Of a stretch of DNA of 64,000 nucleotides, positions 948-63,563 are shown piece by piece; within the stretch, counting starts at the first letter, position 1, and the number at the start of each line of letters is the position of its first letter. The stretch comes from an uncultured virus (IMG/VR IMGVR_UViG_3300006213_002314) (taxonomy: Duplodnaviria > Heunggongvirae > Uroviricota > Caudoviricetes). A program made the translations under genes and the position numbers. Under the pieces are notes generated by a model. That model made no database searches, was not told where the DNA came from, and was given only the letters and a program-made list of their open reading frames with translations. Location: IMG/VR virus record IMGVR_UViG_3300006213_002314; one strand, 5' to 3'.

Positions 948-1221
948 CTTCTCCCTTTGTCTCTCTGTCTCCCTGTTTTTTTCTTTCGACAGCCTCTTTT
1001 ACTGCCGAAATGATAGCTTCTGCTTTCCTTTCTCCGATTCCTTTTACAGAAAGCAGCACATCTCGCATCTCGTTCTCAGTAAGTCCTTCCGCTGCCTTTT
1101 TTCCGTCACGGTAGGCATTTTTATAAAAGGCCTCCGCCCACAAGGTCATTTGACAATGATCCATCTTCCTAATTCTGGCCCAGAGCTTCCTCGGAAACTC
1201 AAATCCTTTTATCTTACCCAT
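922..1221 (-). CDS. helix-hairpin-helix domain protein
   Basis: LLSVKGIGERKAEAI HhH motif. Confidence 0.6.
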   Translation of the reverse strand: MGKIKGFEFPRKLWARIRKMDHCQMTLWAEAFYKNAYRDGKKAAEGLTENEMRDVLLSVKGIGERKAEAIISAVKEAVERKKQGDRETKGEDADAGKEK

Positions 1222-2774
1222 TACTGCTCCTCCGCCTTTTCATACAATTCATGAGTACCGTCCAGTACCTTCTTTTCGTCCTCACTCTCAAAATACCAAC
1301 CATACGGCTCCAGGGCCTCATATCCTTTCAGTAATGCGCTTCCCTTTTCCTGTTTGAACCTGCCCTGCCAATCGTATGTCTCGTTTGTGCTCTTCATGGT
1401 ATCGTTCAGAATAATCATCATCTGATGGAGCGTACTGAGGCCATCTACTTTTTTCTGTGCTTCCTGTTTTTCCTCGTCTGTACACTGATACTCGTCTTTG
1501 CTGAGGAAAAAGCGCCTCAGTGTTGATCCGTATGCATATGCACCAAGACAGATCATTGCCTGCCAGATCGCATCTTCCACCTTTCCCTCGTCTTTTACGG
1601 CATCAATCTTTCCGGAAATAATGTTCTCAATAAATTCCTTCCGTCTGGCAGAACTCTCTCTGAGGATTGCCTTAATCCGCTTCTTTTTCTTATCTTTCTC
1701 CTTCTGCGCAAGCTCAGCCTCAGAAAGCTGTCTTTTTTCCTTTGGAGCTTTTACGATAACCTTCAGACTTCTGTACCATATCACATACAGTAGCTCTCCC
1801 TCTTCTTTCGGAAGCTTGATCTGTTTTGGAACGTCCTTATCCAACTCAAACTCTTTCACGGTTTTCCATTTGCCGGTCCATTGCTCGTTTTCCACTTCTT
1901 TCGGCGCCTTTTTGACCCCGAGCTTTTTCAGCATACCGGCGATAATTTTGGAGTTTTCAGCCCGCTTTGCCTCAGATACCGCACTTTGCGCCCGACTGAC
2001 AAGGTCTCTGGAGCTATTGGCTTCTTTCAAAATCTTATTTCTCACCTTGATATCCTTGACTTTCTCCAATTCATATAAGTCCTTCAAGGTCAGCTGGAAA
2101 CTATCGTCCTTTTCCTTTTTCTTCAATTCCTTTTGATCCAGCTTCGCAATATTTAACCGGTGTCGAATCGTTGTCTTGCTAAATCCGGTTTTCTCAGCTA
2201 TGCTATCTTCTGTCTCTCCCAAATCAAGCATAAGTTGGAATCCCTGCGCCTGCTCATAAATTGTCAGGTCGTTCCGCTGCATATTTTCTTCCAGCATCGT
2301 TGACAGCTGCTCCCTCTGACTCATTCCTTCCACAATCCTGCAAGGCAATTCTGTAAGTCCCGCCATCTGCGCTGCGCCGTGTCTTCGGTTTCCGATCAGC
2401 GCATAATATTCTCCAGTCTTGCCTTCGATCGGTACAACCGTAAGATTCTGCAAGCACCCATTTTTCTTGAGCGATTCTGCCAGTTCTGTCAAATCACCCA
2501 GCTCTTTTCTCGGATTTTCCGGATGCGTGTGTATGTGATCCACTCCGATATAAACAATGTTTCTTTCTTCTGTTCCCATGATTTCCTCCTTTTGACTCTC
2601 TGCCCCGCTTTTAATCTTTTCCCATAGCATCAGTGCTTCTTTCTTTGTGGGCTTCATATATGTTCCAGCTCCGCAAGACGGGCAACTTATATAACTGCCA
2701 ACCCCGCACACAACTACTCTGGCCTGTTTGCCGCATATGCAAGGAACCATTTCATAACGTTCCATACCTACCAA
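1221..2774 (-). CDS. ParB/Spo0J-family protein with N-terminal Lar-like zinc-finger segment
   Basis: HPENPRKE...LQNLTVVP...IGNRRHGAA...EENMQRNDL and HTH (IAEKTGFSKTTIRHRL); CxC...CxxCG at N-terminus; internal ATG at 2579 with AGGAGG RBS. Confidence 0.8.
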   Translation of the reverse strand: MVGMERYEMVPCICGKQARVVVCGVGSYISCPSCGAGTYMKPTKKEALMLWEKIKSGAESQKEEIMGTEERNIVYIGVDHIHTHPENPRKELGDLTELAESLKKNGCLQNLTVVPIEGKTGEYYALIGNRRHGAAQMAGLTELPCRIVEGMSQREQLSTMLEENMQRNDLTIYEQAQGFQLMLDLGETEDSIAEKTGFSKTTIRHRLNIAKLDQKELKKKEKDDSFQLTLKDLYELEKVKDIKVRNKILKEANSSRDLVSRAQSAVSEAKRAENSKIIAGMLKKLGVKKAPKEVENEQWTGKWKTVKEFELDKDVPKQIKLPKEEGELLYVIWYRSLKVIVKAPKEKRQLSEAELAQKEKDKKKKRIKAILRESSARRKEFIENIISGKIDAVKDEGKVEDAIWQAMICLGAYAYGSTLRRFFLSKDEYQCTDEEKQEAQKKVDGLSTLHQMMIILNDTMKSTNETYDWQGRFKQEKGSALLKGYEALEPYGWYFESEDEKKVLDGTHELYEKAEEQ

Positions 2775-3673: not shown

Positions 3674-3692
3674 CGCTTCCTCCCTTCAATCA

Positions 3693-3712
3693 TGGCGGCT
3701 TCCCAGCCGCCA
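3693..3712 (-). promoter_or_regulatory. DGR target hairpin downstream of VR2
   Basis: TGGCGGCT-GGGA-AGCCGCCA on minus strand, 8-bp stem, 32 nt past the end of VR2. Confidence 0.8.
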
Positions 3713-3718
3713 CATCAG

Positions 3719-4906
3719 TTACTCAGTTTTCCGTTTTCTGAAATAAGCGGAGCGGAAGCCGAGGTTGCTGTTGGCGTAGGACCGGGGGTTGTAGAGGTTC
3801 ACGTGGAACACGCCAGCATTGGAAGTGTGGCTCCAGCAGCCCCCGCAGAGCGGCAAATATTCGCCGTTAGTGCTGTCAATATAACAATATGCCTTTGGCT
3901 CTCCGGAAAACATAGCCAGCTCTTTCAAGCGTTCAGACTCGCATTTAATTGTCACATTCTCCCATCTGTCACCGGTGTATCCTTCCTTTGCAACACCCTC
4001 GCTTTTAATGGTAATTTCTCCGGCTTCCACAGATACAGCTATTGCTCTTCCATTCTTATCGTCCAGAATCGGCTTCCAGTTTTTGCTATTCTCTGATAAG
4101 TCAATATCCAGGGCTGCATCATTGTTTTTGCAGGCTTCCAAAACTCCATCCTTAATCCGAAATCCTCTCACCATTTCCAAAACATTTCCGCATAAATCAT
4201 GCACTCCTTCAGGGGTATGATCGTGCGTCCACGTTGCCGGCCCTGATCCAGTCAGTGTTATTGTTCCGTTGCCTGCATCTACGCCCTTCTCTTCTGTGTC
4301 CTCATGGCATTTCCCATAATTCGTGTTTCCATGAGGCAATGTGCCGTTCTTTAAGCTGAGGTTTGCCAGCAATCCCCATTCCGGACGTGTCATAAGATGC
4401 CATCCCTCTCCCTTGGAGAAGCAAGCCTTTGCGGCATCATCATTCGTGATATTGGTCCACGGCTTCTGGTAAGGCAGGCTGTACGGCTTTCCGTTTATTT
4501 CGCAGTTTTCATACACAGATATGTAAATTTCATCATATTCATCATCCCCAATAATAAACGCTGCATTTGTCTTATCGCTTCCTCCGAACAATTCCTTATT
4601 TGTGATCTTTCTGAATCTGTGCATGATTGACGGAATACCAGCTTCATCGTAGATTGCTACAACGTCATGCTCCATTCCTCCGGGAATCTCTTTTGACTCT
4701 GAGATTGGCTCTGTGATCCCTTTCCTCTTTTCATCCGGAAGAGTAACGCCTCCTCCCATCAGGAAAATTGGAAGCACAATCTCCTGTTCGCCCTTAGCGT
4801 ATCCTTCAATACACTTTTTGATTGCTCCGGCCTGTCCTGCTACAAAAGCATCCTCTCCTTTAATTTTCAAGCTAAAGTCTTCGCTCTGAAATTCCATCTT
4901 TGCCAT
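3719..4906 (-). CDS. DGR target protein 2 (FGE-sulfatase/C-type-lectin-fold family), remote target
   Basis: Paralog of 20797..21864 (YSLP..P, GWHLM, KNGT.P.GN.N.G, TGSGP.TW.H, G..DL.GNV.E); C-terminal VR ending LGFRSA. Confidence 0.9.
   Translation of the reverse strand: MAKMEFQSEDFSLKIKGEDAFVAGQAGAIKKCIEGYAKGEQEIVLPIFLMGGGVTLPDEKRKGITEPISESKEIPGGMEHDVVAIYDEAGIPSIMHRFRKITNKELFGGSDKTNAAFIIGDDEYDEIYISVYENCEINGKPYSLPYQKPWTNITNDDAAKACFSKGEGWHLMTRPEWGLLANLSLKNGTLPHGNTNYGKCHEDTEEKGVDAGNGTITLTGSGPATWTHDHTPEGVHDLCGNVLEMVRGFRIKDGVLEACKNNDAALDIDLSENSKNWKPILDDKNGRAIAVSVEAGEITIKSEGVAKEGYTGDRWENVTIKCESERLKELAMFSGEPKAYCYIDSTNGEYLPLCGGCWSHTSNAGVFHVNLYNPRSYANSNLGFRSAYFRKRKTE
3745..3857 (-). repeat. DGR variable repeat VR2
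   Basis: 113 bp aligned to TR 20158-20270 with 9 mismatches, all at TR adenines (coding strand). Confidence 0.95.
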
Positions 4907-4922: not shown

Positions 4923-5615
4923 TTAAACTGCTGCTAATGCTCTATTCGCAAGCGCCTCAAATACCTTGAATCCATAAATAAATCCCTGCATCTCCGCCTC
5001 TACTGCTACTCCCATAACTGCATCTTCCAGATTATTCATGTCCGCCGTAGCAACATTGGCTTTTCTCATTGCCTGGTAAAACTCCTCGTACTTCACACTT
5101 AGTTCCTCTATCTCACGGTTTTCAATCGCCGGCCCGGTCACGAACTTATCAAACAGCTCCTTTATGTACCCACATTCTGATCTGGAGCGCCCCTGCATAA
5201 GGATAATCTTCTGACTTCCTACTGGCTTTCCATGAAATATCTGTTCAATTCGCTCTTTAAATTTTTCCATTCCGTCCACAAATGCCTTACTTCTTTTTTC
5301 TTCCGAGCAAATCTTATCTGCATACAGCTTGCATCCCTCTTCTGTCAACTTCCAGATCGGATGCTTCCTTCCATTTCGGTATTCCCGCTGTGCAATTTCA
5401 AACTCCATTTTCTCCTGATCTGTTGCCTCCGCTGTTACAAACCTTGATATACGGTTAAATATCCGTGTGTGCGTACACTGAAAAATTTCTGCCATCTCCC
5501 AGCTTGTCATAGGTTCTGTCTCCTGTCTTTCCGCTTCGCCATCTGCAATCCGCTTGATGATCTCTGCGATTTTTTCAGCCTGATCCTTACTGATGTTCAA
5601 CACCATTTCATTCAC
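4923..5615 (-). CDS. Rha-family phage regulatory protein
   Basis: MTSWEMAEIF..TH..I...I...YRNGRKHPIWKLTEEGC; probable GTG start at 5615 with GGAGG RBS. Confidence 0.65.
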   Translation of the reverse strand: MNEMVLNISKDQAEKIAEIIKRIADGEAERQETEPMTSWEMAEIFQCTHTRIFNRISRFVTAEATDQEKMEFEIAQREYRNGRKHPIWKLTEEGCKLYADKICSEEKRSKAFVDGMEKFKERIEQIFHGKPVGSQKIILMQGRSRSECGYIKELFDKFVTGPAIENREIEELSVKYEEFYQAMRKANVATADMNNLEDAVMGVAVEAEMQGFIYGFKVFEALANRALAAV

Positions 5616-5869
5616 GATTTTCTCACCTCCTCTCTCAATACTCCAAGAAGAGGATGCCACGGCCTTGCTCCCCTGATCCGTTTCACGATTCTTTCCAGAT
5701 CAATATCAGATTTCTTAACCCACCGAAGTTTTCCGGCTTTCACGCTGTCTTTTTTCAAAATTTTATCGTGAAATCCATCTGTTACCTTGATACTGTCAAT
5801 TCCGCAATCCCGATCAGTATATGCCACACACTGTTTTGCGCCGTATAAGCAATATCCAAAAATTTTCAT
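5612..5869 (-). CDS. hypothetical protein
   Basis: ORF track; overlaps both neighbours by 4 nt. Confidence 0.6.
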   Translation of the reverse strand: MKIFGYCLYGAKQCVAYTDRDCGIDSIKVTDGFHDKILKKDSVKAGKLRWVKKSDIDLERIVKRIRGARPWHPLLGVLREEVRKS

Positions 5870-6189: not shown

Positions 6190-6439
6190 TCTGTCCTTGT
6201 TGTTCTCGCTCATTTTCTTCTCTCCTTTCGCATATTGCGATATAATCCCTCACATGAAAACCATTGATAATATTGACAGCCTGCAACTCAGTCAGTTTGC
6301 AGCGGTTCTGCAATTCAATTCTCAGCTTTCTGCGTTCCCCAACATCCTGCCTACTCTTGTCAGGAAGATTTCTGGCCCTGCTTATATACTCATTTGCTAT
6401 CTGCATCGTCAACATCTCCGCCGCATTTCCAGGTGTCAC
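6179..6439 (-). CDS. hypothetical protein
   Basis: ORF track; coupled to neighbours. Confidence 0.6.
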   Translation of the reverse strand: MTPGNAAEMLTMQIANEYISRARNLPDKSRQDVGERRKLRIELQNRCKLTELQAVNIINGFHVRDYIAICERREENEREQQGQNGN

Positions 6440-7362
6440 GCTTCTGCCTCCTGCATTTTCTCCATTTGCTCAATAACTCTTTTTAGTGCATATTCAGAAT
6501 TTCCGTTGAGATGCCTCTGCCAAGCTCCATTGGAGGGTGCCCAGCGAAAACCATTACTTTTCAGAATCTCCCGGATTTCCGGCTCTGGTTTACCTTCAAA
6601 AATTATCTGCAGGCGCATCGCCTCCGCATTCCGGACAACTTTGAAGAACTCGTTCTCTGTTTCCTGCGTTCCTTTAGCCTTTACCGTCTTCAACCTTTTC
6701 AGCCGATCCTCTATCCGATGGATATTAGCATTATTATTCTGGAGAGCATAATCCGGAAACCCCACTCTTCCGCAGAAATCCGGCTCTCTCAGCTGCTTTA
6801 TCTGATCGTCTGAGTACCCCATATCCCTCAGTGCCTCATTTCCCTTTTTAGCATCTTTCAGACGAAGCGCCTTATTCGCCGCCTTCATTGCCGCCTGATT
6901 CTCCTTCAAGCCTTCCAGCTTTTCCTCCAGTTTCTCAACCGCCTTTTCATCGTCCGACTTGATGATGTTCTTGCCGTGCAGAATGGCCTCCATTTTTCTA
7001 AGGATGCCCTGAATCTCCTTAAACTGCTGATAATTCTTATCTGCTGCGGCATTCTGCTTTTCCTTCTTTCTTACCGGAAAATTACCGGCACCGGAAATCA
7101 TCACGGACGGGCACATACACCCGATACGGCTGCTCGCATTCATATTCTCTGCCATTTTTCGTGAATATCTCTCTGCCAGCCGGTATGCTCTTTCCGCCTC
7201 GTCAGGTCGTTCCTCTGCTACCTTATCAGCCAGATCATAAGCCCGGTCTACGTATCCACGGTACTCGGCCGTTTTACTGCCCTCCTGGTAATCTCCAAAC
7301 GACATCATATCGTGCGCTGTCTTGGCCGCCGCCTCATTGATTGAATAATAAACTCTCTTCAT
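6436..7362 (-). CDS. conserved mobile-element protein (polyvalent-protein-associated type)
   Basis: SVMISGAGNFPVRKKEK and RLQIIFEGKP...LKSNGFRWAPSNGAWQR motifs recalled from phage/ICE accessory proteins. Confidence 0.55.
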   Translation of the reverse strand: MKRVYYSINEAAAKTAHDMMSFGDYQEGSKTAEYRGYVDRAYDLADKVAEERPDEAERAYRLAERYSRKMAENMNASSRIGCMCPSVMISGAGNFPVRKKEKQNAAADKNYQQFKEIQGILRKMEAILHGKNIIKSDDEKAVEKLEEKLEGLKENQAAMKAANKALRLKDAKKGNEALRDMGYSDDQIKQLREPDFCGRVGFPDYALQNNNANIHRIEDRLKRLKTVKAKGTQETENEFFKVVRNAEAMRLQIIFEGKPEPEIREILKSNGFRWAPSNGAWQRHLNGNSEYALKRVIEQMEKMQEAEA

Positions 7363-8684: not shown

Positions 8685-8761
8685 GTTTTATTTGTTGTTT
8701 GATTATGTATATATTATAACTCGCACTTGCGAGTTTGTCAAGTGTTTTACTTCTATTTTTC
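8685..8761 (-). promoter_or_regulatory. consensus sigma-70/SigA promoter with operator palindrome (repeat copy 1)
   Basis: TTGACA (8736-8741), 17 nt, TATAAT (8713-8718); palindrome AACTCGCA-CT-TGCGAGTT at 8718-8735; 76/77 identical to 15205-15281. Confidence 0.9.
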
Positions 8762-8974
8762 GAGTTTTTTACGTGCTACTATCTCGTATCCGAGAGCTGA
8801 CACCATTCTCTCAAAGCTGTCATAACGCATACTTTTTATTCCCCTGTTCAGAAAATCGCTTACATTCTGCCGGGTAACTCCCATCTTATCTGCTAACTCT
8901 CTCTGATTAAGGTCTTCGATTTCGAGGATTTCTCTAATAGCTTCTGCTGCTCCCTTATTGCAGATTACTTCCAA
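8753..8974 (-). CDS. XRE-family HTH protein
   Basis: LNQRELADKMGVTRQNVSDFLNRG. Confidence 0.8.
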   Translation of the reverse strand: MEVICNKGAAEAIREILEIEDLNQRELADKMGVTRQNVSDFLNRGIKSMRYDSFERMVSALGYEIVARKKLEK

Positions 8975-15204: not shown

Positions 15205-15281
15205 GTTTTATTTGTTGTTTGATTATGTATATATTATAACTCGTACTTGCGAGTTTGTCAAGTGTTTTACTTCTATTTTTC
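15205..15281 (-). promoter_or_regulatory. consensus sigma-70/SigA promoter with operator palindrome (repeat copy 2)
   Basis: TTGACA (15256-15261), 17 nt, TATAAT (15233-15238); one mismatch to copy 1 (15244). Confidence 0.9.
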
Positions 15282-15316
15282 AATTATTTACTCGCACTTG
15301 CGTTTTATGGTTGATT

Positions 15317-15715: not shown

Positions 15716-15746
15716 AAAAAATGCCCTGATCCCGAAGGATCAGGGC
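15716..15746 (-). terminator. intrinsic terminator after endolysin
   Basis: GCCCTGATCC-TTCG-GGATCAGGGC then ATTTTTT on the minus strand. Confidence 0.85.
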
Positions 15747-15799: not shown

Positions 15800-17437
15800 T
15801 TATTTAAGCAATTCGTTTACTTTTTTCTGGACTTTGGCATAATCATAGCCTGCGGCTTTGAGCCGCTTTTTCCGATCATTGCCAACTCCCCACTTGCCAG
15901 CGATTACTTCTTTGGCAACTTCTGTGACAGATTTTTTGGGTGTAGATACAGACAAAATCTCATTGACTCTCTTCTGAACAGTATCGTAGTCATACCCTGC
16001 TTTTTTCAGAGCAGACTTCCTTGCATCGCCAGTTCCCCATTTCCCGGCAATTACTTCCTGTGCCAGCTCGTCCACACTCTTTTTCTCTGAACCTGTTTTC
16101 TTGTTGTACAGCTCTTCCAACTTAGCCTTAGCCTTTGGACCATACTTGCCATCAACGGTCAATCCATTTGCTTTCTGGAAGGACCGTAATCCGGAATCTG
16201 TTCCAGAGCCAAAATCTCCATCCGCTCCAGACGCTCCACAGGAATAACCACATGCAATTAACATAGTCTGCATAGTCTTCACCGCTGATCCGCTGTCTCC
16301 CTTTTCCAAATATCCTTTTTCTGAACCTGCATTCGCCCCATTATCGACCGTAATATTTACATGGTGCGATGTATTCAGATTGATGTCACCTCGTTTGGCA
16401 AGGCTGGGGCTGGTCAGATACTTGCCGGTCAAAATTTCAAAGTATTTCTTGCCGGCCGCCGATCTGAACCAAGTCATCATGTTTCCAGTGTAGCCCATTA
16501 CATTGTGGCAATTCTGTAATTCTGCGATGCCCTTTATGTGGCCGACTGCTCTAATAAGATCAATCGTTCCCTTTGAGCAATCTGCTTCACAAGGCGTTTT
16601 GATTTTGGAAGGCCGCCAGCCTACCTTCTGTAACTCAACCCCAAACGTGGTTCTTTGTCCCTGATCGTACCCAACATTATTATTCTGCGCCGCTTCTACT
16701 GCGAGGTCAGCAAAAAGATTGGCAAGTTCTTCATCCTTCCATCGTAAGATATAGTTCCACGGATAAGAATACCATGAACGGAGATACCATTCCGTCCCAG
16801 TCTGATCTCCTGCTTTTCCTCCAGAATACCTGTTGTTTTCATCGTGTCCGCAATTCGACATTCTTACTCCCATATTTGAATCCTCCTTTTTCACGTAATT
16901 TTCATAAAACTTCTGCCCTCTTGCCGCCCGACTTGCGCATACTGTCTCGCCGGTATTTGCAGGAGCCTCAAACTTTTTTAACACAATATCCGACGCCTCC
17001 CGAATGGATGATGTACTTTTCAGCACTTTCAAGACGCTCTGGTAATTGTTCTCCATCTCCCACAAAAGAAACTCAATCTGCATATCTTCGTTTGCAATCG
17101 AAACACCTTTTGTGTTCGCAAGATTCCAGAGGCCGGCTTTTCTTCCGGGACTCGTCCACTGTGCCAATCCGTATCCGTACTGTTTCCCCGGAAGAGGATG
17201 TAGAAATTCTTCACAACTGATTTTCCTTGCATCTATTGCTGCAGTATAGCTTGAATCCGAATACGTTTTTCCGTTCTCTTTCAGTCTCTTCAAGCACAGG
17301 TATTCCACTCGGTTTGTGTAAAAACCATCAGATTCAGCCTCCAGGTTACCGATCAGGGCACTGGCTCCTGCTGGAGTCATGCCTGCCGCAACAAACTTCT
17401 GATACGCTCTTTTCTCAGCTGCCACGTTAATGCTCAT
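15800..17437 (-). CDS. modular endolysin: phage-tail-lysozyme-like domain, Cys/His peptidase-like domain, PG-binding domain, two CW_7 repeats
   Basis: GNLEAES...YGLAQWT; GYDQ...ADCS...HHV; LEKGDSGSAVKTMQ...DGDFG...FQ..NGL.VDG; two KSV.E.A.EVIAGKWG.G..RK..L..AGYDY repeats. Confidence 0.88.
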   Translation of the reverse strand: MSINVAAEKRAYQKFVAAGMTPAGASALIGNLEAESDGFYTNRVEYLCLKRLKENGKTYSDSSYTAAIDARKISCEEFLHPLPGKQYGYGLAQWTSPGRKAGLWNLANTKGVSIANEDMQIEFLLWEMENNYQSVLKVLKSTSSIREASDIVLKKFEAPANTGETVCASRAARGQKFYENYVKKEDSNMGVRMSNCGHDENNRYSGGKAGDQTGTEWYLRSWYSYPWNYILRWKDEELANLFADLAVEAAQNNNVGYDQGQRTTFGVELQKVGWRPSKIKTPCEADCSKGTIDLIRAVGHIKGIAELQNCHNVMGYTGNMMTWFRSAAGKKYFEILTGKYLTSPSLAKRGDINLNTSHHVNITVDNGANAGSEKGYLEKGDSGSAVKTMQTMLIACGYSCGASGADGDFGSGTDSGLRSFQKANGLTVDGKYGPKAKAKLEELYNKKTGSEKKSVDELAQEVIAGKWGTGDARKSALKKAGYDYDTVQKRVNEILSVSTPKKSVTEVAKEVIAGKWGVGNDRKKRLKAAGYDYAKVQKKVNELLK

Positions 17438-18645: not shown

Positions 18646-18816
18646 TCATTCAAAGACCTCCTTCTGCATATCGGCAGCTGTTTTGATTTTATCCAAGTCC
18701 GAATCTGTAATCATGCCGTTTTGCAGAAGCTCTGCAGCCAGCGCGTCAATGATATCCGTTTGTAATTTGATAATCTCTGACATCTTCTCCAGCGCTTCCA
18801 TAATGGATATTTTCAT
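18646..18816 (-). CDS. small hypothetical protein (56 aa) overlapping RT 3' end
   Basis: Read manually: MKISIMEALEKMSEII...QKEVFE; GAGGAGG RBS. Confidence 0.55.
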   Translation of the reverse strand: MKISIMEALEKMSEIIKLQTDIIDALAAELLQNGMITDSDLDKIKTAADMQKEVFE

Positions 18817-19951
18817 CAACATCTCCTCCTCTCAATTTTTTATTGGTTTTCTCTGCGTGTGTAAGCACGAAATCCTCCACCATCTTTTCCTTCAAGGAAT
18901 CGCTATCACAATGCTTTAGCATTCCAACATAGCAACTCAATGTATCAAATGCCTGTTTCAAAGTGATTTTCTTCACCCGGTACGCCTCCTGTCTTGCCTT
19001 TAGAACACGCTTCATGTGGAGTGTCGTTTTCTTTCTAAGCACAAGTTTGTCCGGCCATACCCGGTAGCCTACAAATTCAATTCCCTGGGTAATCGGACGA
19101 ATACAGGTTTTATTATTCAGCTGCAGCTCCAATTCAGTTTCGAGGAAGGAAGCGATTCTGTCCTTCCACTCTCTCAACTGATCTTTGCTACTGCATAAAA
19201 TAATCACATCATCCATGTATCGGATATAGTAACGGATCTGAAGCACCCGCTTGCAGAACTGATCCAAAACATCCAGATATACATTTGCAAATACCTGTGA
19301 TAACAAATTGCCTATTGGCATTCCCACATCAAAAAGACGTTCCTCCAAGGGAACTTCCCCAGGTGAACGTCCAGGCGGCAAACCAAACGGTGTATGCTCG
19401 CAATCAATAATAGATTCCAACAGTTTCAGTAACCGCTTGTCCTTTATTTTCTTTGCAAGTATTTTCTTCAATATCCGGTGTGATATCCGATAAAAATATT
19501 TACTGATATCCAGCTTTAGGTAAAACCATCGGGAATTTTCCTGACGTGATACCTGGATCAGCCAGTATTGGAGTCTCTGCGCCGCCATGAGCGGCCCTCT
19601 ATCCGGAATACATCCGTAAGAGTCTTTAATGTACCCCTTTACCAGCATAGGATTGACAACTCTGTATATAGCCCACTGTACGATTCGGTGCCGGAATTTG
19701 ATGGACATAATCATTCTCTTCTTTGGTTCGTACACGTAAAAAATATAATATTTCTCAATTCGGTACGTTCCATCATAGATTGACTGTCGGATTTCGCTCA
19801 GTAGCTCCCATGCATGGAAGTTATAATACATCACATCTTTGTTGTATCTCCTATCGGCCGAAGCATCCTCTAGCGCTCCATACAGATTATCCATTGAGAA
19901 GATAAGGTCAAATACATTCTTAATCTTCATAGTGTTGTCATTACCTTTCAT
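18746..19951 (-). CDS. brt: DGR reverse transcriptase
   Basis: LKLDISKYF, GMPIGNLLSQ (GxxxSQ), YIRYMDD; no maturase or HNH tail; next to TR and avd; alternative start 19930. Confidence 0.95.
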   Translation of the reverse strand: MKGNDNTMKIKNVFDLIFSMDNLYGALEDASADRRYNKDVMYYNFHAWELLSEIRQSIYDGTYRIEKYYIFYVYEPKKRMIMSIKFRHRIVQWAIYRVVNPMLVKGYIKDSYGCIPDRGPLMAAQRLQYWLIQVSRQENSRWFYLKLDISKYFYRISHRILKKILAKKIKDKRLLKLLESIIDCEHTPFGLPPGRSPGEVPLEERLFDVGMPIGNLLSQVFANVYLDVLDQFCKRVLQIRYYIRYMDDVIILCSSKDQLREWKDRIASFLETELELQLNNKTCIRPITQGIEFVGYRVWPDKLVLRKKTTLHMKRVLKARQEAYRVKKITLKQAFDTLSCYVGMLKHCDSDSLKEKMVEDFVLTHAEKTNKKLRGGDVDENIHYGSAGEDVRDYQITNGYH

Positions 19952-20156: not shown

Positions 20157-20272
20157 AAAGCGGAGCGGAAGCCGATGTTGCTGTTGGCGTTGGACCGGGG
20201 GTTGTTGAGGTTCACGTTGAACACGCCAGCATTGGAAGTGTTGTTCCAGTTGCCCCCGCAGATCGGCAAACG
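20157..20272 (-). repeat. DGR template repeat (TR)
   Basis: Non-coding copy between avd and RT; 11 AAY codons and 26 adenines when read in VR frame; carries A at every VR mismatch. Confidence 0.95.
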
Positions 20273-20307: not shown

Positions 20308-20739
20308 TTAGCGGCTGTATCGTGTCTTACTGCTTTTGCTTTGAGATGGTTTCTGATCGCCGTACACCCATTCTTTATATTTCCCTATCATTTTTCCAAT
20401 CTCTGTAGAGCGCCGTTCCCACTCATTCCTTGAGCTTGTACCTTTCAGGTATTTCAATCGGAACGCTACTCGGATATACGACTGGAGAGCCTTGTTTTTC
20501 TCATCCAATTCGCTGATAGAGGTCTTTTTATAGTATGCAACCGTCAATGCCGACGCCAGCTGCGACATCTGGTTCATACAATGGGCTATATCATCCCCAA
20601 GCAATTTCTGGTGCGGTATAGACCACTTTTCTATGAGTGGAAGAGCATAAACAATCATATCCTCAATTTTCTGCAGGAGCTTAAATCCATCCTCTTCCAT
20701 CTCTGGACTCATGTTGTTGTCGGATCTCTGTTCTGCCAC
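20308..20739 (-). CDS. avd: DGR accessory variability determinant
   Basis: 143 aa helical protein between target and TR; L..YIRVAFRLKYL...EIGKMIG pattern. Confidence 0.88.
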   Translation of the reverse strand: MAEQRSDNNMSPEMEEDGFKLLQKIEDMIVYALPLIEKWSIPHQKLLGDDIAHCMNQMSQLASALTVAYYKKTSISELDEKNKALQSYIRVAFRLKYLKGTSSRNEWERRSTEIGKMIGKYKEWVYGDQKPSQSKSSKTRYSR

Positions 20740-20762: not shown

Positions 20763-20780
20763 GCCGCCTTCCCAGGCGGC
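20763..20780 (-). promoter_or_regulatory. DGR target hairpin downstream of VR1
   Basis: GCCGCCT-GGGA-AGGCGGC on minus strand, 7-bp stem. Confidence 0.8.
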
Positions 20781-20796
20781 AATCAGTTTACAGTTC

Positions 20797-21864
20797 TCAG
20801 TTTACAAAAGCGGAGCGGAAGCCGAGGTGGCTGCTGGCGTAGGACCGGGGGTAGTTGAGGTACACGCTGAACACGCCAGCACTGGAAGGGTTGCCCCAGT
20901 CGCCCCCGCAGATCGGCAAACGCTCACCCGTGAGGTTTGCGTAATGGTAATCACCGCCATAATCTCCACCTGGTTCATCCGGATATAAGAGCAGAGCTTT
21001 AGCAATTTCCGGCGCTGTCAAGCCAGCAGCAAGAGTCATATCCTTGTACTGTATTCCATGATACTCGTCTGTAGTAAATGTAACAGCTCCGCTCGTAAGT
21101 TGGAGCTTTCCTGACACCCAATCCCATTTCAGTGTACCGGACGTACCAGGTGTAACTAACGAACCGTCTGCCTTAATTGCTTTCCATTCCGTAGAGCCGG
21201 CAGCCATACTGATATCAGCAAGCAGGCTGTTTGCGTAAGGAATAATCTGAATTTCACCATCTTTCAAACGCATACCGGCACACCACTCCCAAACGTTTCC
21301 GTTCAGGTCGCAAATTCCGTCCGGAAGCCAGTTGTGATTCCAAGTATCCGGGCCGGAGCCAGTAGCGCAACGTGCCGGCTCACCAGGATGGCTTGCAGCA
21401 GAAGCGCTCTCGTAAAGCGTGGGAACGCCCTTCTCGTGCGGGTATGCATGATCGTGTCCCCAGTTATTGTTACCTCTCGGCATGGTTCCGTTTTTCCTGC
21501 ACCACAAAGCAATCGCACACCATAACGAATACGGCATCAGGCCCCAACCATTGCCCTTATTTCTGCAGTATGTGTTCGCCTGATCGAAATTGACGTAGGT
21601 TTTCGGGTCCTTGAATGGCAAGGAATACGCCCTGTCGTTCATTACGATATTCTGGAATTTTGAAACATAGATACTCTTCTTGTCAGCTCCTCCAACTTTG
21701 AAGCCCAGATGGTTTTCCTGGCTTCCACCAGTAATAACATCTGCCATCTTATATGCCGGAAACGCCACCATGACGGACGGCATCTCTCTGTCGTCCAGAA
21801 TTACCGTGTTCTTCCCGCCTGATAAAGCCTCTATAGCCAGTTTCATATCATCAAAATTTGCCAT
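20797..21864 (-). CDS. DGR target protein 1, putative receptor-binding/tail-tip protein (C-type-lectin/FGE fold)
   Basis: GICDLNGNVWEW motif, C-terminal VR; last gene of the tail module. Confidence 0.9.
   Translation of the reverse strand: MANFDDMKLAIEALSGGKNTVILDDREMPSVMVAFPAYKMADVITGGSQENHLGFKVGGADKKSIYVSKFQNIVMNDRAYSLPFKDPKTYVNFDQANTYCRNKGNGWGLMPYSLWCAIALWCRKNGTMPRGNNNWGHDHAYPHEKGVPTLYESASAASHPGEPARCATGSGPDTWNHNWLPDGICDLNGNVWEWCAGMRLKDGEIQIIPYANSLLADISMAAGSTEWKAIKADGSLVTPGTSGTLKWDWVSGKLQLTSGAVTFTTDEYHGIQYKDMTLAAGLTAPEIAKALLLYPDEPGGDYGGDYHYANLTGERLPICGGDWGNPSSAGVFSVYLNYPRSYASSHLGFRSAFVN
20807..20922 (-). repeat. DGR variable repeat VR1
   Basis: 116 bp aligned to TR 20157-20272 with 12 mismatches, all at TR adenines. 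Confidence 0.95.
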
Positions 21865-21868
21865 ATAC

Positions 21869-22237
21869 TTATACCTCCATTTCCCATAGTCTCAGTTCGC
21901 AACGATCCATACTAAAAGGCACCGGAGTCCGCTGTGTGATCGTTGGACTCTCAGTGCCTCCTTCTTCTGCATCCGGATTGTAACTCGGATTTGCGATTTC
22001 AGTTTCCGTGTACTCCCTGGCCGGGATAATAACCTGTGCGATGTATTTATCACCTGTCTCAGCTCCCATCACCAGGCCGCCAGTGTAGTCCTGGCAGATG
22101 TCGATTACCACCTCGTAATCACGCTCTTTCTTCGATACATTGAACATCAAATCTCCATCGTTGAAATCAATGTTCTTTCCCAGCACTTCATAGGGAATAA
22201 AAGTCTTGCCGTTCTCCGGCAGATGCGTTACTTTCAT
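21869..22237 (-). CDS. tail-associated hypothetical protein
   Basis: ORF track; position in tail fibre region. Confidence 0.6.
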   Translation of the reverse strand: MKVTHLPENGKTFIPYEVLGKNIDFNDGDLMFNVSKKERDYEVVIDICQDYTGGLVMGAETGDKYIAQVIIPAREYTETEIANPSYNPDAEEGGTESPTITQRTPVPFSMDRCELRLWEMEV

Positions 22238-46495: not shown

Positions 46496-47401
46496 CTACT
46501 TTCCACTCAGATAATCAGCGCAAAGGTATTCGATTAACTGCCACTTGTTCTTGCTGGTAACCGTTCCATCTTTCTCAGCTTTCTTGATGGCCTGCTTTAT
46601 TACTTCTGCAGACTCAGCCGGCACAGCACTACTCCCGAATAGCTTCGTAAGGTACGTCCAATCTTCGTCTTCGCTGAAGCCGACAGCATCCATTTTTTCA
46701 TTGACAGCCTCAATCATGGAATGCACTGCAGCGCCTACATTCCGTATGTCCGTGAACTTCTGGTACTTATCCAGCGTCTCTACGAACCGCTTGCATTGCT
46801 CATATGCCGCTACTCCGATAATCTCAGCTCCGGTATTCTGCAGATTCTTCAACAGGACATCCATGTCGCTGATCTGATGCGGCAGAAACGCAAACGTGAT
46901 ATTCTTAAAATCAAAATGAACCGCAGGGGATGCCAGTTTATCGTACTGCTCCAGCGGTTCTTCCATGATGTCCTTCCCGATAAAGCTCTCCAGCATATCG
47001 TCAACATCCGTTATCATTTTCACGATTTCTCTTAGGGTGGAATCATCATCGAATCCAGCAATCGCATTATGGGCCAACTGCTTCGCCGCAATCTGGCTCC
47101 TTGACAGACCACTCACATCCAGAATGACAATGATTTCTTTCAAACCGGCTGCCCTTGCCGACTTGATCCTGTGGTGCCCGGATACGATTTCCAGCTTATC
47201 ATCCACCAATACCAAAAATGGCAGGCTCTCCAACTGCCCTCTCTTCTTGATATTCGCTGTCAACTGGTCCTGCATCTCATTTTTCATAATCCTGGCGTTA
47301 ATATCCTGCTCTTTCATGCTGTCTATCTGGACCTTTGCAATCACAAGACCTGCGCCCATGTCATATATTACTTCATAGCCTTTGCTCTGTTCTCCCGCCA
47401 T
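46496..47401 (-). CDS. ParB/Srx N-terminal domain protein of DNA-modification module
   Basis: NARIM...IVSGHHRIKSA..AG...QLAHNAIAG.DD. Confidence 0.8.
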   Translation of the reverse strand: MAGEQSKGYEVIYDMGAGLVIAKVQIDSMKEQDINARIMKNEMQDQLTANIKKRGQLESLPFLVLVDDKLEIVSGHHRIKSARAAGLKEIIVILDVSGLSRSQIAAKQLAHNAIAGFDDDSTLREIVKMITDVDDMLESFIGKDIMEEPLEQYDKLASPAVHFDFKNITFAFLPHQISDMDVLLKNLQNTGAEIIGVAAYEQCKRFVETLDKYQKFTDIRNVGAAVHSMIEAVNEKMDAVGFSEDEDWTYLTKLFGSSAVPAESAEVIKQAIKKAEKDGTVTSKNKWQLIEYLCADYLSGK

Positions 47402-48768
47402 TGTTTCTCCTTTCTAAGCCACTGGATAAGAGTTTCCTGCTCAGACCGTCCATCTATCAGCGGAGCTTCATAGGTCAGCTTGAAGCCATTCTGTTTGTCC
47501 TGCACTCTCGAATCCAGTTTCATAATTCCTCGTACCTCTTTATTTTCCGGATACTTCGTCAGCATTGCCGTTCTGATCTTCACAACCTTTTCTTTGTCAA
47601 GATCATCCAGAAGTGAATTGGCAAACTCCCGGTTCTGCGCCAGCATGTAGCAAAGCCGCCCGAGCCGGTACTTCTCATGTGGAACCTTCATCACATACCA
47701 GACAAAGAGCGAATCAGCGGCCATCTTCGATATACCGAATACTCCGGCCACATACCCATCAATCAGCAACGCCCGGTTATATGTAGCTGAGGAGCCTACG
47801 AAATTGTGAGTCCACAATACCCGGTAATACTGAGCTTCTGCGCCCTTTATCGGAATAATCTGGACCTTGCTTTCTTCTGTAATTTCATAGTCCCTCGGCA
47901 GCATACTACATTCCAGAGGCTCCAGCTTGCTTTCTGATGGACGCTTGATCTTCTTTCCATTTGCCAGGGCAACTGCCTCTTCTTCCCGGTTCGTAGTGAT
48001 ATAGCTGTTGAGGTCTGCTCTGGTTCCTGATCTGGCAAAGATTGTGTAGCCTACCGCTTCACCTACACGCTTCTCTTGGTAGCAGATAACCAAAGCCTTT
48101 GCATCCATGCACATATCATAAAGTTGCTGGTGTCCGGTTTCCGGATTGAACAGCTGATACTCTGGCTCTTTCCATGTCATTTTCCCCTGGGTATCGTAGA
48201 ACTTTTCATATCCGGAAAAATATGTTGGAGGATTCGCTATAACCAACGCATGAGGATCGTCAAGCACCTCTTTCAGATGGTCCCACATATCCAGAGGGCG
48301 GTAGCTCATTCCATGCAAAAGCTCTCTGGTGCTGTCGATCTGCCTTTGAATATTCGCTATATGTTCTTCTCTGCGATACTTCAAGTCCATCAGCATATTG
48401 TGAAAATATTCATTGCCGGCACTCTTTGAAGTGCGGAGGTACATCTGTGCGTACAAAGCCGTTGCAGGGTCAAGCAGCTCTTCGTCTGAGAAGCCTTGTG
48501 CATGAATTTCCAGAGGCGCTAAAGACTGTCCTGTGATGGCATACCCAAGCACAGAGGTCATCATAGAAACATCGCTTGTTTCTATCTGCTCTGGTTTGAA
48601 GCCACCACGTACCGCCAGGTTTGCCATTGCAAAGGTTCCTGCACACGGCTCAACAAATCTTGTATAGCCCGATTTCGCCGCTGTTTCGATCAGTTTCACC
48701 AGATACTTTTGTTCCACAGTACCAAGGCAACCGAGAAACATCTCTCCTGGGTCCCTAAAAAACGCCAT
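47368..48768 (-). CDS. putative DNA adenine-modification enzyme: N6-MTase-like N-terminus plus Mom/GNAT-like C-terminus
   Basis: FVEPCAGTFA (motif I-like), IANPPTY (motif IV-like); C-terminal VQIIPI...A...WTHNF...LLIDGYVAGVFG...RLGRL; ATG 48768 with AGGAG RBS. Confidence 0.6.
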   Translation of the reverse strand: MAFFRDPGEMFLGCLGTVEQKYLVKLIETAAKSGYTRFVEPCAGTFAMANLAVRGGFKPEQIETSDVSMMTSVLGYAITGQSLAPLEIHAQGFSDEELLDPATALYAQMYLRTSKSAGNEYFHNMLMDLKYRREEHIANIQRQIDSTRELLHGMSYRPLDMWDHLKEVLDDPHALVIANPPTYFSGYEKFYDTQGKMTWKEPEYQLFNPETGHQQLYDMCMDAKALVICYQEKRVGEAVGYTIFARSGTRADLNSYITTNREEEAVALANGKKIKRPSESKLEPLECSMLPRDYEITEESKVQIIPIKGAEAQYYRVLWTHNFVGSSATYNRALLIDGYVAGVFGISKMAADSLFVWYVMKVPHEKYRLGRLCYMLAQNREFANSLLDDLDKEKVVKIRTAMLTKYPENKEVRGIMKLDSRVQDKQNGFKLTYEAPLIDGRSEQETLIQWLRKEKQWRENRAKAMK

Positions 48769-48914
48769 TTCTCTTCCACTCCTTTCTCTCTTTGTTGAAA
48801 ATATACAAAAAGCCAAACAAGTCTCTTGTACTACCCCCGTAATTTCCGAGACTGATTTGGCAGATTGCACAAAATAAAGGCACCGTACTGTTTCAAATAC
48901 GATGCCGTTTCTTT

Positions 48915-48984
48915 TGGACCGGACTCCTGCAATGAACAGGAACTCTCTCCTGGGAGGAAAGCGTGATTCTTTCACCAAGTCCGG
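48915..48984 (-). tRNA. non-canonical tRNA-Gly(CCC)-like element, 70 nt, encoded CCA
   Basis: CCGGACT TG GTGA AAGAA TCAC G CTTTC CTCCCAG GAGAG AGTT CCTG TTCATTG CAGG AGTCCGG T CCA: all four stems pair; U73; short D-loop without GG; 4-bp T-stem. Confidence 0.7.
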
Positions 48985-48987
48985 ATA

Positions 48988-49524
48988 TTATGTTGTCATG
49001 CCCGCCATTCCGAATAAACTCATTTGCTGGAACCCTTCGTCTTCCCTTTGGGATTCCTTCTGAGCGGCAGGGCGTTTACTGTCTGTCTTCTGTGTTTTCT
49101 TAGCTGTTGGTTTCTTCTCTTTCGGAGGATTCGGGTCTGAAAGCTCTGGGATGATTTCTCCGGTCTGCTCCATGTACCACTGAGCAAATACCGTTCTGTG
49201 GCACCAGTCTTCCGGTATTCTCACATCCTCGTAGCAAAGCAGCACTAAATCTTTGTTCTGGTCTGCGGCCTCTCTCTCAAACCTCATAACCATATCAACG
49301 ATTCTGTCTGCTCCGATTCCCTCCAGCTTCCGGTAGTATGCTTCTTTGAATGCGTCATAATCCATTCTCAGCATATACCCTTTCGGTGCCAGTGAATAGC
49401 ATTGTGTCACCAGTTCATACCCGAGCGGGAACTTCGGCGCTCCTATGCTGATTCCAATGCAGTAATACTTCTCTTTGTTCTCGGTCAGCTCCTTATTGCT
49501 GTACCGGCTCGTCCAAATAGCCAT
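48988..49524 (-). CDS. DUF488-like protein
   Basis: IWTSRY...IGIS...LAP...LVLLCYE...CHR. Confidence 0.7.
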   Translation of the reverse strand: MAIWTSRYSNKELTENKEKYYCIGISIGAPKFPLGYELVTQCYSLAPKGYMLRMDYDAFKEAYYRKLEGIGADRIVDMVMRFEREAADQNKDLVLLCYEDVRIPEDWCHRTVFAQWYMEQTGEIIPELSDPNPPKEKKPTAKKTQKTDSKRPAAQKESQREDEGFQQMSLFGMAGMTT

Positions 49525-49792
49525 ATCTGATACTCCCTTTCTCTCGCAAATGCAAGTATATGTTATACTTTTATTATACTATGCGAGCAGGTCTAAGTAC
49601 ACTGAAATACCCTTATTTAACCGATTTTTCACATTTCCAAAGGCTGCTTCCGGGAGGTCTGTACCTCCCGGTCCTGCCTCGGAGGGAAGAAAAACAACAC
49701 GTTTTTTAGGGGTGACATATGACTTATCGGGCTTTTACCAGAATAACACGAAGCCTTTCGCTTGTCTAGTGCAACCTTTTCGCATATGCGAG

Positions 49793-62087: not shown

Positions 62088-62173
62088 TTACGATTATTTA
62101 CAAACTCGCAGGTACTATGAAACAGCGCAATTCCAATCTCGCAAATTTGATTTTATTGATGTTTCATGTATAT

Positions 62174-62223
62174 ATTATACTACATTTTTGCGAGTTTGTA
62201 AATAGTTTTGCTCGTATTTGCGT
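62174..62223 (-). promoter_or_regulatory. leftward early promoter with operator sites
   Basis: TTTACA (62197-62202), 17 nt, TATAAT (62174-62179); same ATATACAT flank as the duplicated promoters; operator CTCGTATTTGCGT at 62211-62223. Confidence 0.75.
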
Positions 62224-62248
62224 ATTATTTACTGTATGGAGGTAAAAC

Positions 62249-62665: not shown

Positions 62666-62989
62666 ATGTGTAACCAAACAGAATACTTCACACTTGCAAG
62701 GGCGGAAGAGTGTGCCGGCCATGATGCCGCCGCTCTTCTTTTTTACCTTTCTTCCTTCTGCGCAAAATTTAACAACGGATCGGTAAGCTATCCTTACCGG
62801 GAAACTGCAAAAATCCGAAAACTACAGCTCCGGCTCAGCATTCCGGATTATCAGGTATTTGATCTGATCCATTCGTATGGACCGCTCACTGATATACAGT
62901 GCAGGTGTCTGCTGTATTTTTCTATCCACGGCTGTCTATCCGGAATTTATTCGGTTCTGGAAAACAGCCCTGTGAGAAATGGAGGCTAA
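62666..62989 (+). CDS. hypothetical protein in lysogeny module
   Basis: ORF track; GGAGG RBS. Confidence 0.55.
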   Translation: MCNQTEYFTLARAEECAGHDAAALLFYLSSFCAKFNNGSVSYPYRETAKIRKLQLRLSIPDYQVFDLIHSYGPLTDIQCRCLLYFSIHGCLSGIYSVLENSPVRNGG

Positions 62990-63563
62990 AATGAATCAAC
63001 TTAACGGAAACGAGGAATTTACTCTCGGTGGTAAAAACTCCGGAATAACAGTTAATGAATTCTGGAGCTGGGCGTATTCTGATCTGCTCAATAATACATA
63101 CCGTGGAGTGCTGGCAGAGTTCCTTGTTGAAAAATCTCTGGCTCAAAATACCCCCCCCCGCACGCAAATGCGAGTTGACTGGGCTCCATACGACTTAATC
63201 AGTCCAACCGGGAGGCGGATTGAGGTAAAATCTGCCGCTTACCTCCAATCCTGGGAACAAGATTATTATTCCAAAATTATCTTTGACATTGCTCCTCACC
63301 GAGCATGGGATGCTAAAACCGGATTTGCTCCAGAGGCAAAACGAAATTCCGACTTATACGTGTTCTGTGTCTACACAGCACTCAGTAGAGACGAATCTAT
63401 GTTAAACCTTGATCTATGGGATTTTTATGTTCTTCCAACTTCTGTTCTGAACGAAAGGGTCCCGGTTCAAAAAACAATCGGTCTGCAATCCCTTCAAAAA
63501 TTGTGTCCTATCAAAGCAAACTATTCTGAACTTGGTGGAATTATAGAAACTATTCAACTGTAA
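62979..63563 (+). CDS. PD-(D/E)XK restriction-endonuclease-like protein
   Basis: RGVLAEFLV...PYDL...IEVKSAAY. Confidence 0.65.
   Translation: MEAKMNQLNGNEEFTLGGKNSGITVNEFWSWAYSDLLNNTYRGVLAEFLVEKSLAQNTPPRTQMRVDWAPYDLISPTGRRIEVKSAAYLQSWEQDYYSKIIFDIAPHRAWDAKTGFAPEAKRNSDLYVFCVYTALSRDESMLNLDLWDFYVLPTSVLNERVPVQKTIGLQSLQKLCPIKANYSELGGIIETIQL

Follow-up and report, generated by a model that had tools for sequence, protein, structure and literature searches.

Phage DGRs are generally taken as diversifiers of host-recognition proteins, and the role of a second target located far from the DGR cassette is a question raised in several papers. Three phages with this layout have already been published: (i) the Faecalibacterium phage Lagaffe (Lagaffe_CP), which has two Mtd-like DGR targets and for which a wider (doubled) host range has been suggested (Gulyaeva 2024, PMC11792537); (ii) the Roseburia phage Shimadzu, in which both VRs are mutated, the VR2 alleles are weakly selected in mice and one virome held no dominant VR2 allele (Cornuault, 10.1101/575076); and (iii) Toutatis, whose second VR gene is a core gene located 17 kb away and found in 98.8% of the phages, versus 68% for the DGR (10.1101/2024.10.15.618418). 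Second VRs have been reported near counter-defence genes (Dahlman 2025, PMC12629997), and receptor binding has been proposed for remote targets (Baykov 2023, PMC10743442; Egorov 2024, 10.1101/2024.10.15.618418). One receptor can be bound by different VRs (PMC10743442), and the N-terminal modules of DGR targets are often virion anchors (PMC12636319). The available text of PMC11792537, 10.1101/575076, PMC12629997, PMC10743442 and 10.1101/2024.10.15.618418 includes no test of the virion content or timing of remote targets, and that of Benler 2018 (PMC6199706), Roux 2021 (PMC8144416) and PMC12135933 includes nothing on their function.

The window analysed here (the whole stretch of DNA, 64,000 nucleotides) represents nearly all of a 64,632-base virus record, from a phage found in mouse and rat gut runs. 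The named relatives nearest to it are Blautia and Eubacteriales prophages, so that its host is likely a member of the Lachnospiraceae. The integrase lies at the right end of the genome, next to repressor-like and divergent cro-like genes (~62.1-62.6 kb). Leftward from the cro-like gene come the replication, packaging, head, baseplate and lysis genes, followed by a post-lysin region that begins at 15.2 kb and extends to the left end of the window. Three further features of this genome can be mentioned: (i) a 545-aa multi-domain endolysin (15800-17437) that has two regions of catalytic type and, at its C-terminus, repeats; (ii) a likely DNA-modification cassette immediately preceding the terminase (46496-49524), composed of ParB-like, DAM-like/GNAT (PF22555+PF22559) and DUF488-like genes; and (iii) a 194-aa gene without Pfam or PHROG match between repressor and integrase (62979-63563, plus strand), which we take to resemble a PD-(D/E)xK nuclease and which is possibly a lysogen-expressed defence gene.

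The DGR of this phage is complete, with T1, avd, template repeat (TR) and reverse transcriptase (RT), all on the minus strand. The tail-linked target 1 (T1, 20797..21864) ends in VR1 (20808..20920), a 113-nt repeat of the TR, after which there is a hairpin with a GGGA loop (20763..20780). Avd (20308..20739; PF22296 match), the TR (20158..20270; repeat and VR/TR mismatch comparison) and the RT (18746..19951; PF00078 match) complete the cassette, and both RT and Avd are thereby present in the element that carries target 2.

Target 2 (T2) is a protein of 395 aa (phrog_2889) encoded 16 kb from the template by a minus-strand open reading frame (3719..4906) with a GGAGG ribosome site. Its 3' end, VR2 (3745..3857, minus strand), is a 113-nt repeat of both the TR (20158-20270) and VR1 (20808-20920). 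VR2 differs from the TR at nine positions, every one of them a TR adenine, an outcome with a chance probability of ~4e-6 by our own arithmetic, adenine making up about a quarter of the TR letters. Four members of the T2 cluster (of 14) come from the same phage in other samples and show no change outside the VR, while 8-13 VR residues differ. A GC-rich hairpin with a GGGA loop also follows VR2 (3692..3713, minus strand), as it follows VR1, and is absent after the TR; it is likely a homing cis-element, with a role and a requirement that we assume to be as in BPP-1. T2 is genuinely a second target of this DGR, and its VR2 has been rewritten from the shared template. This confirms the preliminary description, which had proposed T2 as a second target sharing the core of T1: residues 83-388 of T2 align with residues 20-353 of T1 at 36% identity.

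Such proteins are abundant, as one T2 cluster contains 6,730 member sequences. Cultured lysogens with an orthologue include Blautia fusiformis CLA-AA-H217 (L085) and Faecalibacterium intestinale CLA-AA-H281 (L092). The best 120 homologues have a core identity of 60-70% and are far closer to T2 than T1 is. An internal start of T2 at M78, where GGAGG abuts the ATG, was considered and discarded; nearly all homologues retain the N-terminal extension. In two loci (L006, L084) VR2 is frameshifted, which may reflect assembly error or tolerated loss, and VR1 is frameshifted in none of 28 triplets.

The AlphaFold2 model of T2 (88 homologues; pLDDT 81) shows strands at residues 2-7 and 12-17, a helix at 19-37 (pLDDT 62-68), disorder at 42-57, and then the core. 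By both sequence and fold, its best PDB match is TaqVP (5VF4; E 2e-31; TM 0.70); Bordetella phage BPP-1 Mtd is matched at a Foldseek E of 1e-3, and the match to PF03781 is below the cut-off. T2 is thus predicted to adopt a TaqVP-like, FGE-type CLec fold with a C-terminal VR. As regards the invariant catalytic Cys/Ser set of formylglycine-generating enzymes, no invariant Cys was seen in the VR segment among the 88 aligned homologues. The CLec fold and the C-terminal VR are also those of BPP-1 Mtd and of TaqVP, the latter from a Thermus aquaticus prophage and likewise of the FGE type; unlike T2, TaqVP is cassette-adjacent and a monomeric single domain, with no module or linker (PMC6328139). The models of both targets share the same core fold and differ at the N-terminus: that of T1 opens with a helix (residues 2-15) where that of T2 has a beta-beta-alpha module, and ~80 N-terminal residues of T2 replace 19 of T1.

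This N-terminal part of T2 (minus strand) consists of a module of residues 1-40 (4787..4906) and a linker of variable length (4727..4786), predicted to be disordered (pLDDT below 50 in residues 42-57). A module profile built from residues 1-45 of 31 loci scored at least 15 bits in 112 of 120 T2 homologues and in none of the T1 set, whose maximum was 0.7. Hence, the extension of about 78 aa, previously described as unrelated, is indeed unrelated to T1 but is not unique, since it comprises a conserved module of ~40 aa plus a linker. When 1.84 billion representatives were searched with the profile, the matches were mostly T2 fragments and, in addition, proteins with the module ahead of DUF6273; four of 83 matches were long repetitive false positives. 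No family was found for the module in Pfam, no usable match in the ESM Atlas and no published description in open-access text. Except for a split T2 in L102, neither the genome of the window nor the other loci contain further module-bearing genes. The predicted complex of two module copies had an ipSAE of 0.02. A fusion of the module to an HTH (P0303) is a singleton whose relatives carry the HTH without the module, and was not used.

The helix of T1 has an equally clear distribution: the helix motif precedes the core in 120/120 T1 homologues versus 0/120 T2 homologues. Phages of Vibrio, Pseudoalteromonas, Aeromonas and Bacillus likewise have it in their tail-linked targets, where in the proteobacterial cases it follows a long helical stalk; the remote targets of Lagaffe and Saumur lack it. 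Upstream of T1, in 30/30 T1 loci, there is a gene that here encodes 122 aa (21869..22237, minus strand; phrog_8734). The helix may dock T1 on the virion, and the 122-aa product is a candidate adaptor. T2 lacks two features of tail-linked targets, namely the position in the tail module beside avd, TR and RT, and the N-terminal helix.

Regarding their phylogeny, a core tree computed without the VR placed 41 remote and 28 tail-linked rows on opposite sides of one branch (SH-aLRT 95), the 37 closest T2s grouping at 97. It is a quick tree with a midpoint root, comprising 69 rows after 20 near-copies were dropped, and the Saumur and Lagaffe branches in it are long. The remote targets thus appear to form an old clade separate from the tail-linked targets; a recent origin of T2 as a duplicate of T1 was ruled out by this same quick tree. 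Of the near-complete virus records that carry T2, 17 in all, T1 is also present in 15 and an RT in 14. The three without an RT match are G013 (L023/L127), G021 and G024; G013 has kept T1, and no TR was found in it.

The association between T2 and the resident DGR has been maintained over time. In 28 of 29 testable T1/T2 pairs (30 were examined, several of them near-copies), VR2 matches the TR of its own phage, mostly with differences at adenines, and therefore T2 stayed a target while the templates diverged. VR1 and VR2 are equally changed, with 60/292 Asn codons unchanged in each (28 triplets), and their residue make-up is indistinguishable (chi-square p 0.86). No convergence of VR1 and VR2 was found within one phage (21/101 versus 45/241 across phages). 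These statistics argue weakly against one shared ligand and give no sign of a distinct ligand class. As separate observations, the TR of L086/L116 has 15 adenines versus 26 in relatives and was apparently partly overwritten by VR sequence; and, near DGR cassettes, the early region is joined directly to a T1 3' fragment (L093:13230-13490), to a methylase-sheath chimera (L098:12088-13614) or to a TR with an RT stub (L025:13900-14100), junctions that represent either large deletions or misassemblies.

The module also heads targets with another binder. In one related phage (G046), a 295-aa gene with the module and DUF6273 is a remote DGR target located ~12 kb from its TR, which lies beside RT and VR1; all 17 mismatches fall at adenines of that TR. 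Two identical operator-promoters and orthologues (56-62%) of the window genes at 6436, 6179 and 5866 lie upstream of it, which is the gene slot of T2. MT835491, also a related phage, provides a second case in the same slot; its T1 (410 aa) lacks the module and lies beside baseplate genes. The module scores 41 and 21 bits in G046 and MT835491, versus at most 11.9 among 2,128 background N-termini, and in profile-profile comparison the T2 module matches the DUF6273-target profile with a probability of 96.8% (E 2.6e-10), versus 0.2% for T1. FGE-type and DUF6273-type binder domains are not alignable with each other. DUF6273 plus module was present in nine loci, the same set in both scans. Because module and slot are shared by FGE and DUF6273 targets, tag and position appear to be retained in the remote gene and the binder to follow the type of DGR present in the phage, a conclusion based on two DUF6273 lineages.

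T2 belongs to a published kind of DGR target, the remote second targets known from phages of gut Clostridia, with some differences among its members. Lagaffe, like the phage of the window, has one TR, a tail-linked target (gp26) and, in its early region, a remote paralogue from that family (gp40, L013:31798-33060), which also has no tail-type helix and groups with the remote targets in the tree. Unlike T2 (39% identity), gp40 has no N-terminal module and carries instead a C-terminal extension after the VR, ~80 aa and helical-looking. The second VR of Shimadzu, in orf43, is similarly remote and lies near genes for methylases and recombination, but orf43 is akin to the DUF6273-type remote target (38%) and has no module. 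The second targets of Toutatis, nd4 and nd12 resemble T2 in sharing a TR with a first target, in their case a larger one, but their binder is DUF6273, their first target is a tentaclin, and nd12_tgt2 has a helical DUF3310-like N-terminus (PMC10743442, 10.1101/2024.10.15.618418). Not every remote target requires the module, which is absent from Lagaffe gp40, Shimadzu orf43 and the remote target of Saumur. The preliminary description's term 'unusual' for an intracellular diversified binder should be tempered, since the layout with remote second targets in early regions is already described; new here are the separate remote clade, the missing helix, the conserved module and its presence at the head of unrelated DUF6273 targets.

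Regarding expression, only three sigma-70 sites matching at least 11 of the 12 consensus positions exist in the genome, all on the minus strand and all with AACTCGCAA, the operator half-site, after the -35: (i) the leftward cro-side promoter of the immunity region (62174..62202; 11/12); (ii) a second operator-promoter copy at the start of the post-lysin early region (15233..15261); and (iii) a perfect (12/12) site (8713..8741) with a palindromic operator in its spacer (ACTCGCA-NN-TGCGAGT). The latter, already reported as an operator-containing promoter, is the nearest strong promoter upstream of T2 and a copy of the lytic (cro-side) promoter; in the lysogen it would be repressed. With two or fewer mismatches, the palindrome occurs eight times in the genome versus 0.1 expected. 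A predicted intrinsic terminator after the endolysin (15723..15746, minus strand) closes the late operon, and none was predicted on the minus strand from 8741 to T2. Based on the cro-type promoter copies, the late-operon terminator and the uninterrupted stretch from 8741 to T2, expression of T2 is likely early and repressor-controlled. The operator is nevertheless a weaker marker of early timing because two of these eight sites, near 49542 and 49778, precede the late region. The RNA runs X19 and X20 are contigs and, across the whole region, are sparse or come from a diverged relative. The promoter-operator block is found in three copies (8685-8769, 15205-15289 and 62146-62230; 95% and 66% alike), and seven other loci (L002, L004, L007, L008, L085, L140, L143) have two block copies upstream of the remote target, with the palindrome in each.

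The genes adjacent to T2, on the minus strand, are a Rha/antirepressor-like gene directly upstream (4923..5660) and a ParB-like gene downstream (1221..2579). Of the neighbours named by the preliminary description, ParB was recovered (PF02195) and the Rha-like gene falls just under the Pfam cut-off (E 2e-6); the gene labelled ASCH has no Pfam match and a single PHROG match, phrog_625 (a family of unknown function), so that its label is putative. In a survey of 25 loci (three same-strand genes on each side of T2), the neighbours included DNA methyltransferases (7), MazF-like proteins (8), MazG-like pyrophosphohydrolases (7), dUTPases (3) and Mom-like proteins (2), along with SSB, resolvases, DnaC and ParB; these are raw counts, and methylases and MazG-like genes are generally common in early regions. 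A named non-structural family occurs near T2 in 23 loci (none was named in two), and 23 have no structural neighbour according to PHROGs. In the other two, the third downstream gene is structural: a tail terminator in L016 and a methylase/sheath chimera in L098. In a limited tblastn, 37 of 38 loci had no tail-gene match at a distance of up to 5 kb, although the search missed the L016 terminator gene. In many phages, with either scaffold type, a 308-aa DUF3560-like gene (6436-7362 in the window; phrog_19458) recurs close to the remote target, only a few genes apart.

Because of the predicted early-gene setting, the lack of a tail-type helix and the retention of the tag with an unrelated binder, T2 is likely intracellular and not on the tail. 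That T2 is an early, non-tail protein, as first proposed, thus gains indirect support from the promoter architecture, the late terminator, the neighbours in 25 loci, the missing helix and the separate clade; overall, we regard a non-tail role as probable. The more specific reading that we favour, that of an early, cytoplasmic, evolvable binder probably directed against host defence, falls a little short of being probable itself. According to it, the repressor-controlled, duplicated promoter at 8741 would transcribe T2 on induction or infection, and T2 would be made in the cytoplasm; the module would oligomerise T2 or recruit a partner; and the CLec surface, tethered by the linker and rewritten by the DGR, would bind a protein of the host, with a defence component as the most plausible candidate. 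It is the gene neighbours that point to a host defence protein as the ligand, and the general frequency of methylases and MazG-like genes in early regions counts against this step. By extension, phages of gut Clostridia might have an intracellular 'antibody', composed of a tag, a linker and a lectin-fold domain mutable by the resident DGR, produced as infection begins so that new binders of host defence proteins can evolve, with cassette exchange swapping the binder and keeping tag and slot; as a whole, this extension is rather doubtful.

Several observations count against an intracellular binder. The residue make-up of VR2 is the same as that of VR1, with no sign of a distinct ligand class; Shimadzu VR2 is weakly selected in mice (10.1101/575076); the module is missing in Lagaffe, Saumur and Shimadzu; VR2 is frameshifted in L006 and L084; and remote targets have been read as receptor-binding proteins (PMC11792537, PMC10743442, 10.1101/2024.10.15.618418). 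Moreover, most BFVD structural neighbours of T2 are named tail (collar) fibre proteins, and two of the 25 loci have a structural third gene. Part of this evidence would suit a second virion-surface binder (an alternative tail tip or a capsid decoration) for another receptor or mucus, with the module replacing the T1 helix, as T2 has the fold and VR chemistry of T1 and tail proteins as its BFVD neighbours, DGR targets are often anchored to virions by their N-terminal modules (PMC12636319), and such a binder has been proposed (Gulyaeva 2024; Baykov 2023; Egorov 2024). However, T2 is not in the tail module (37/38 loci by limited tblastn; 23/25 by PHROGs), a predicted terminator separates it from the late operon, its promoter is of the cro type, and the weak selection of Shimadzu VR2 (10.1101/575076) does not favour this role either. 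The alternative tail tip is thus less likely than a non-tail role, and a virion binder of either kind is unlikely, albeit of some weight.

A protein made early could still be packaged. T4 internal proteins and P1 Dar proteins are packaged in the head and injected with the DNA, and by analogy the module of T2 might be a packaging tag. The conserved N-terminal tag on interchangeable cargo domains and the anti-restriction-type neighbours fit this possibility, but a globular protein of 395 aa would have to pass through the tail, and we consider it quite unlikely.

It is also conceivable that T2 has a fixed early function and that its hypermutation is near neutral, persisting through homology and cis-elements and not through selection of variants. 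This would agree with the lack of a dominant Shimadzu VR2 allele in one virome (10.1101/575076), the frequencies of second-VR gene (98.8%) and DGR (68%) in Toutatis (10.1101/2024.10.15.618418), the three of 17 T2 records without an RT match, and the VR2 frameshifts in L006 and L084. Nevertheless, VR2 tracks its own diverged TR in 28/29 pairs and the hairpin is kept; in addition, the type of binder domain agrees with that of the resident DGR, also between different scaffolds, and this implies that remaining a target has been selected for. Near-neutral hypermutation is, like packaging, quite unlikely.

The least probable reading, for which there is little room, is that T2 is a soluble decoy masking the phage's own receptor at lysis, by analogy with T5 Llp, or a superinfection-exclusion protein: T2 and the receptor-binding T1 are paralogues that draw on one template, but VR2 does not converge on VR1 (although one receptor can be bound by different VRs, PMC10743442), the promoter looks repressed in the lysogen, and T2 appears to lack the membrane or lipoprotein signal of a secreted or membrane exclusion protein (no hydrophobic window above 1.6 and no lipobox in a simple hydropathy and lipobox scan).

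Returning to the early, cytoplasmic binder, the shared module, the missing virion-type helix and the cro-type promoter make the role of remote targets directly testable. If T2 is intracellular, common gut prophages would carry an adaptive, continuously rewritten counter-defence.
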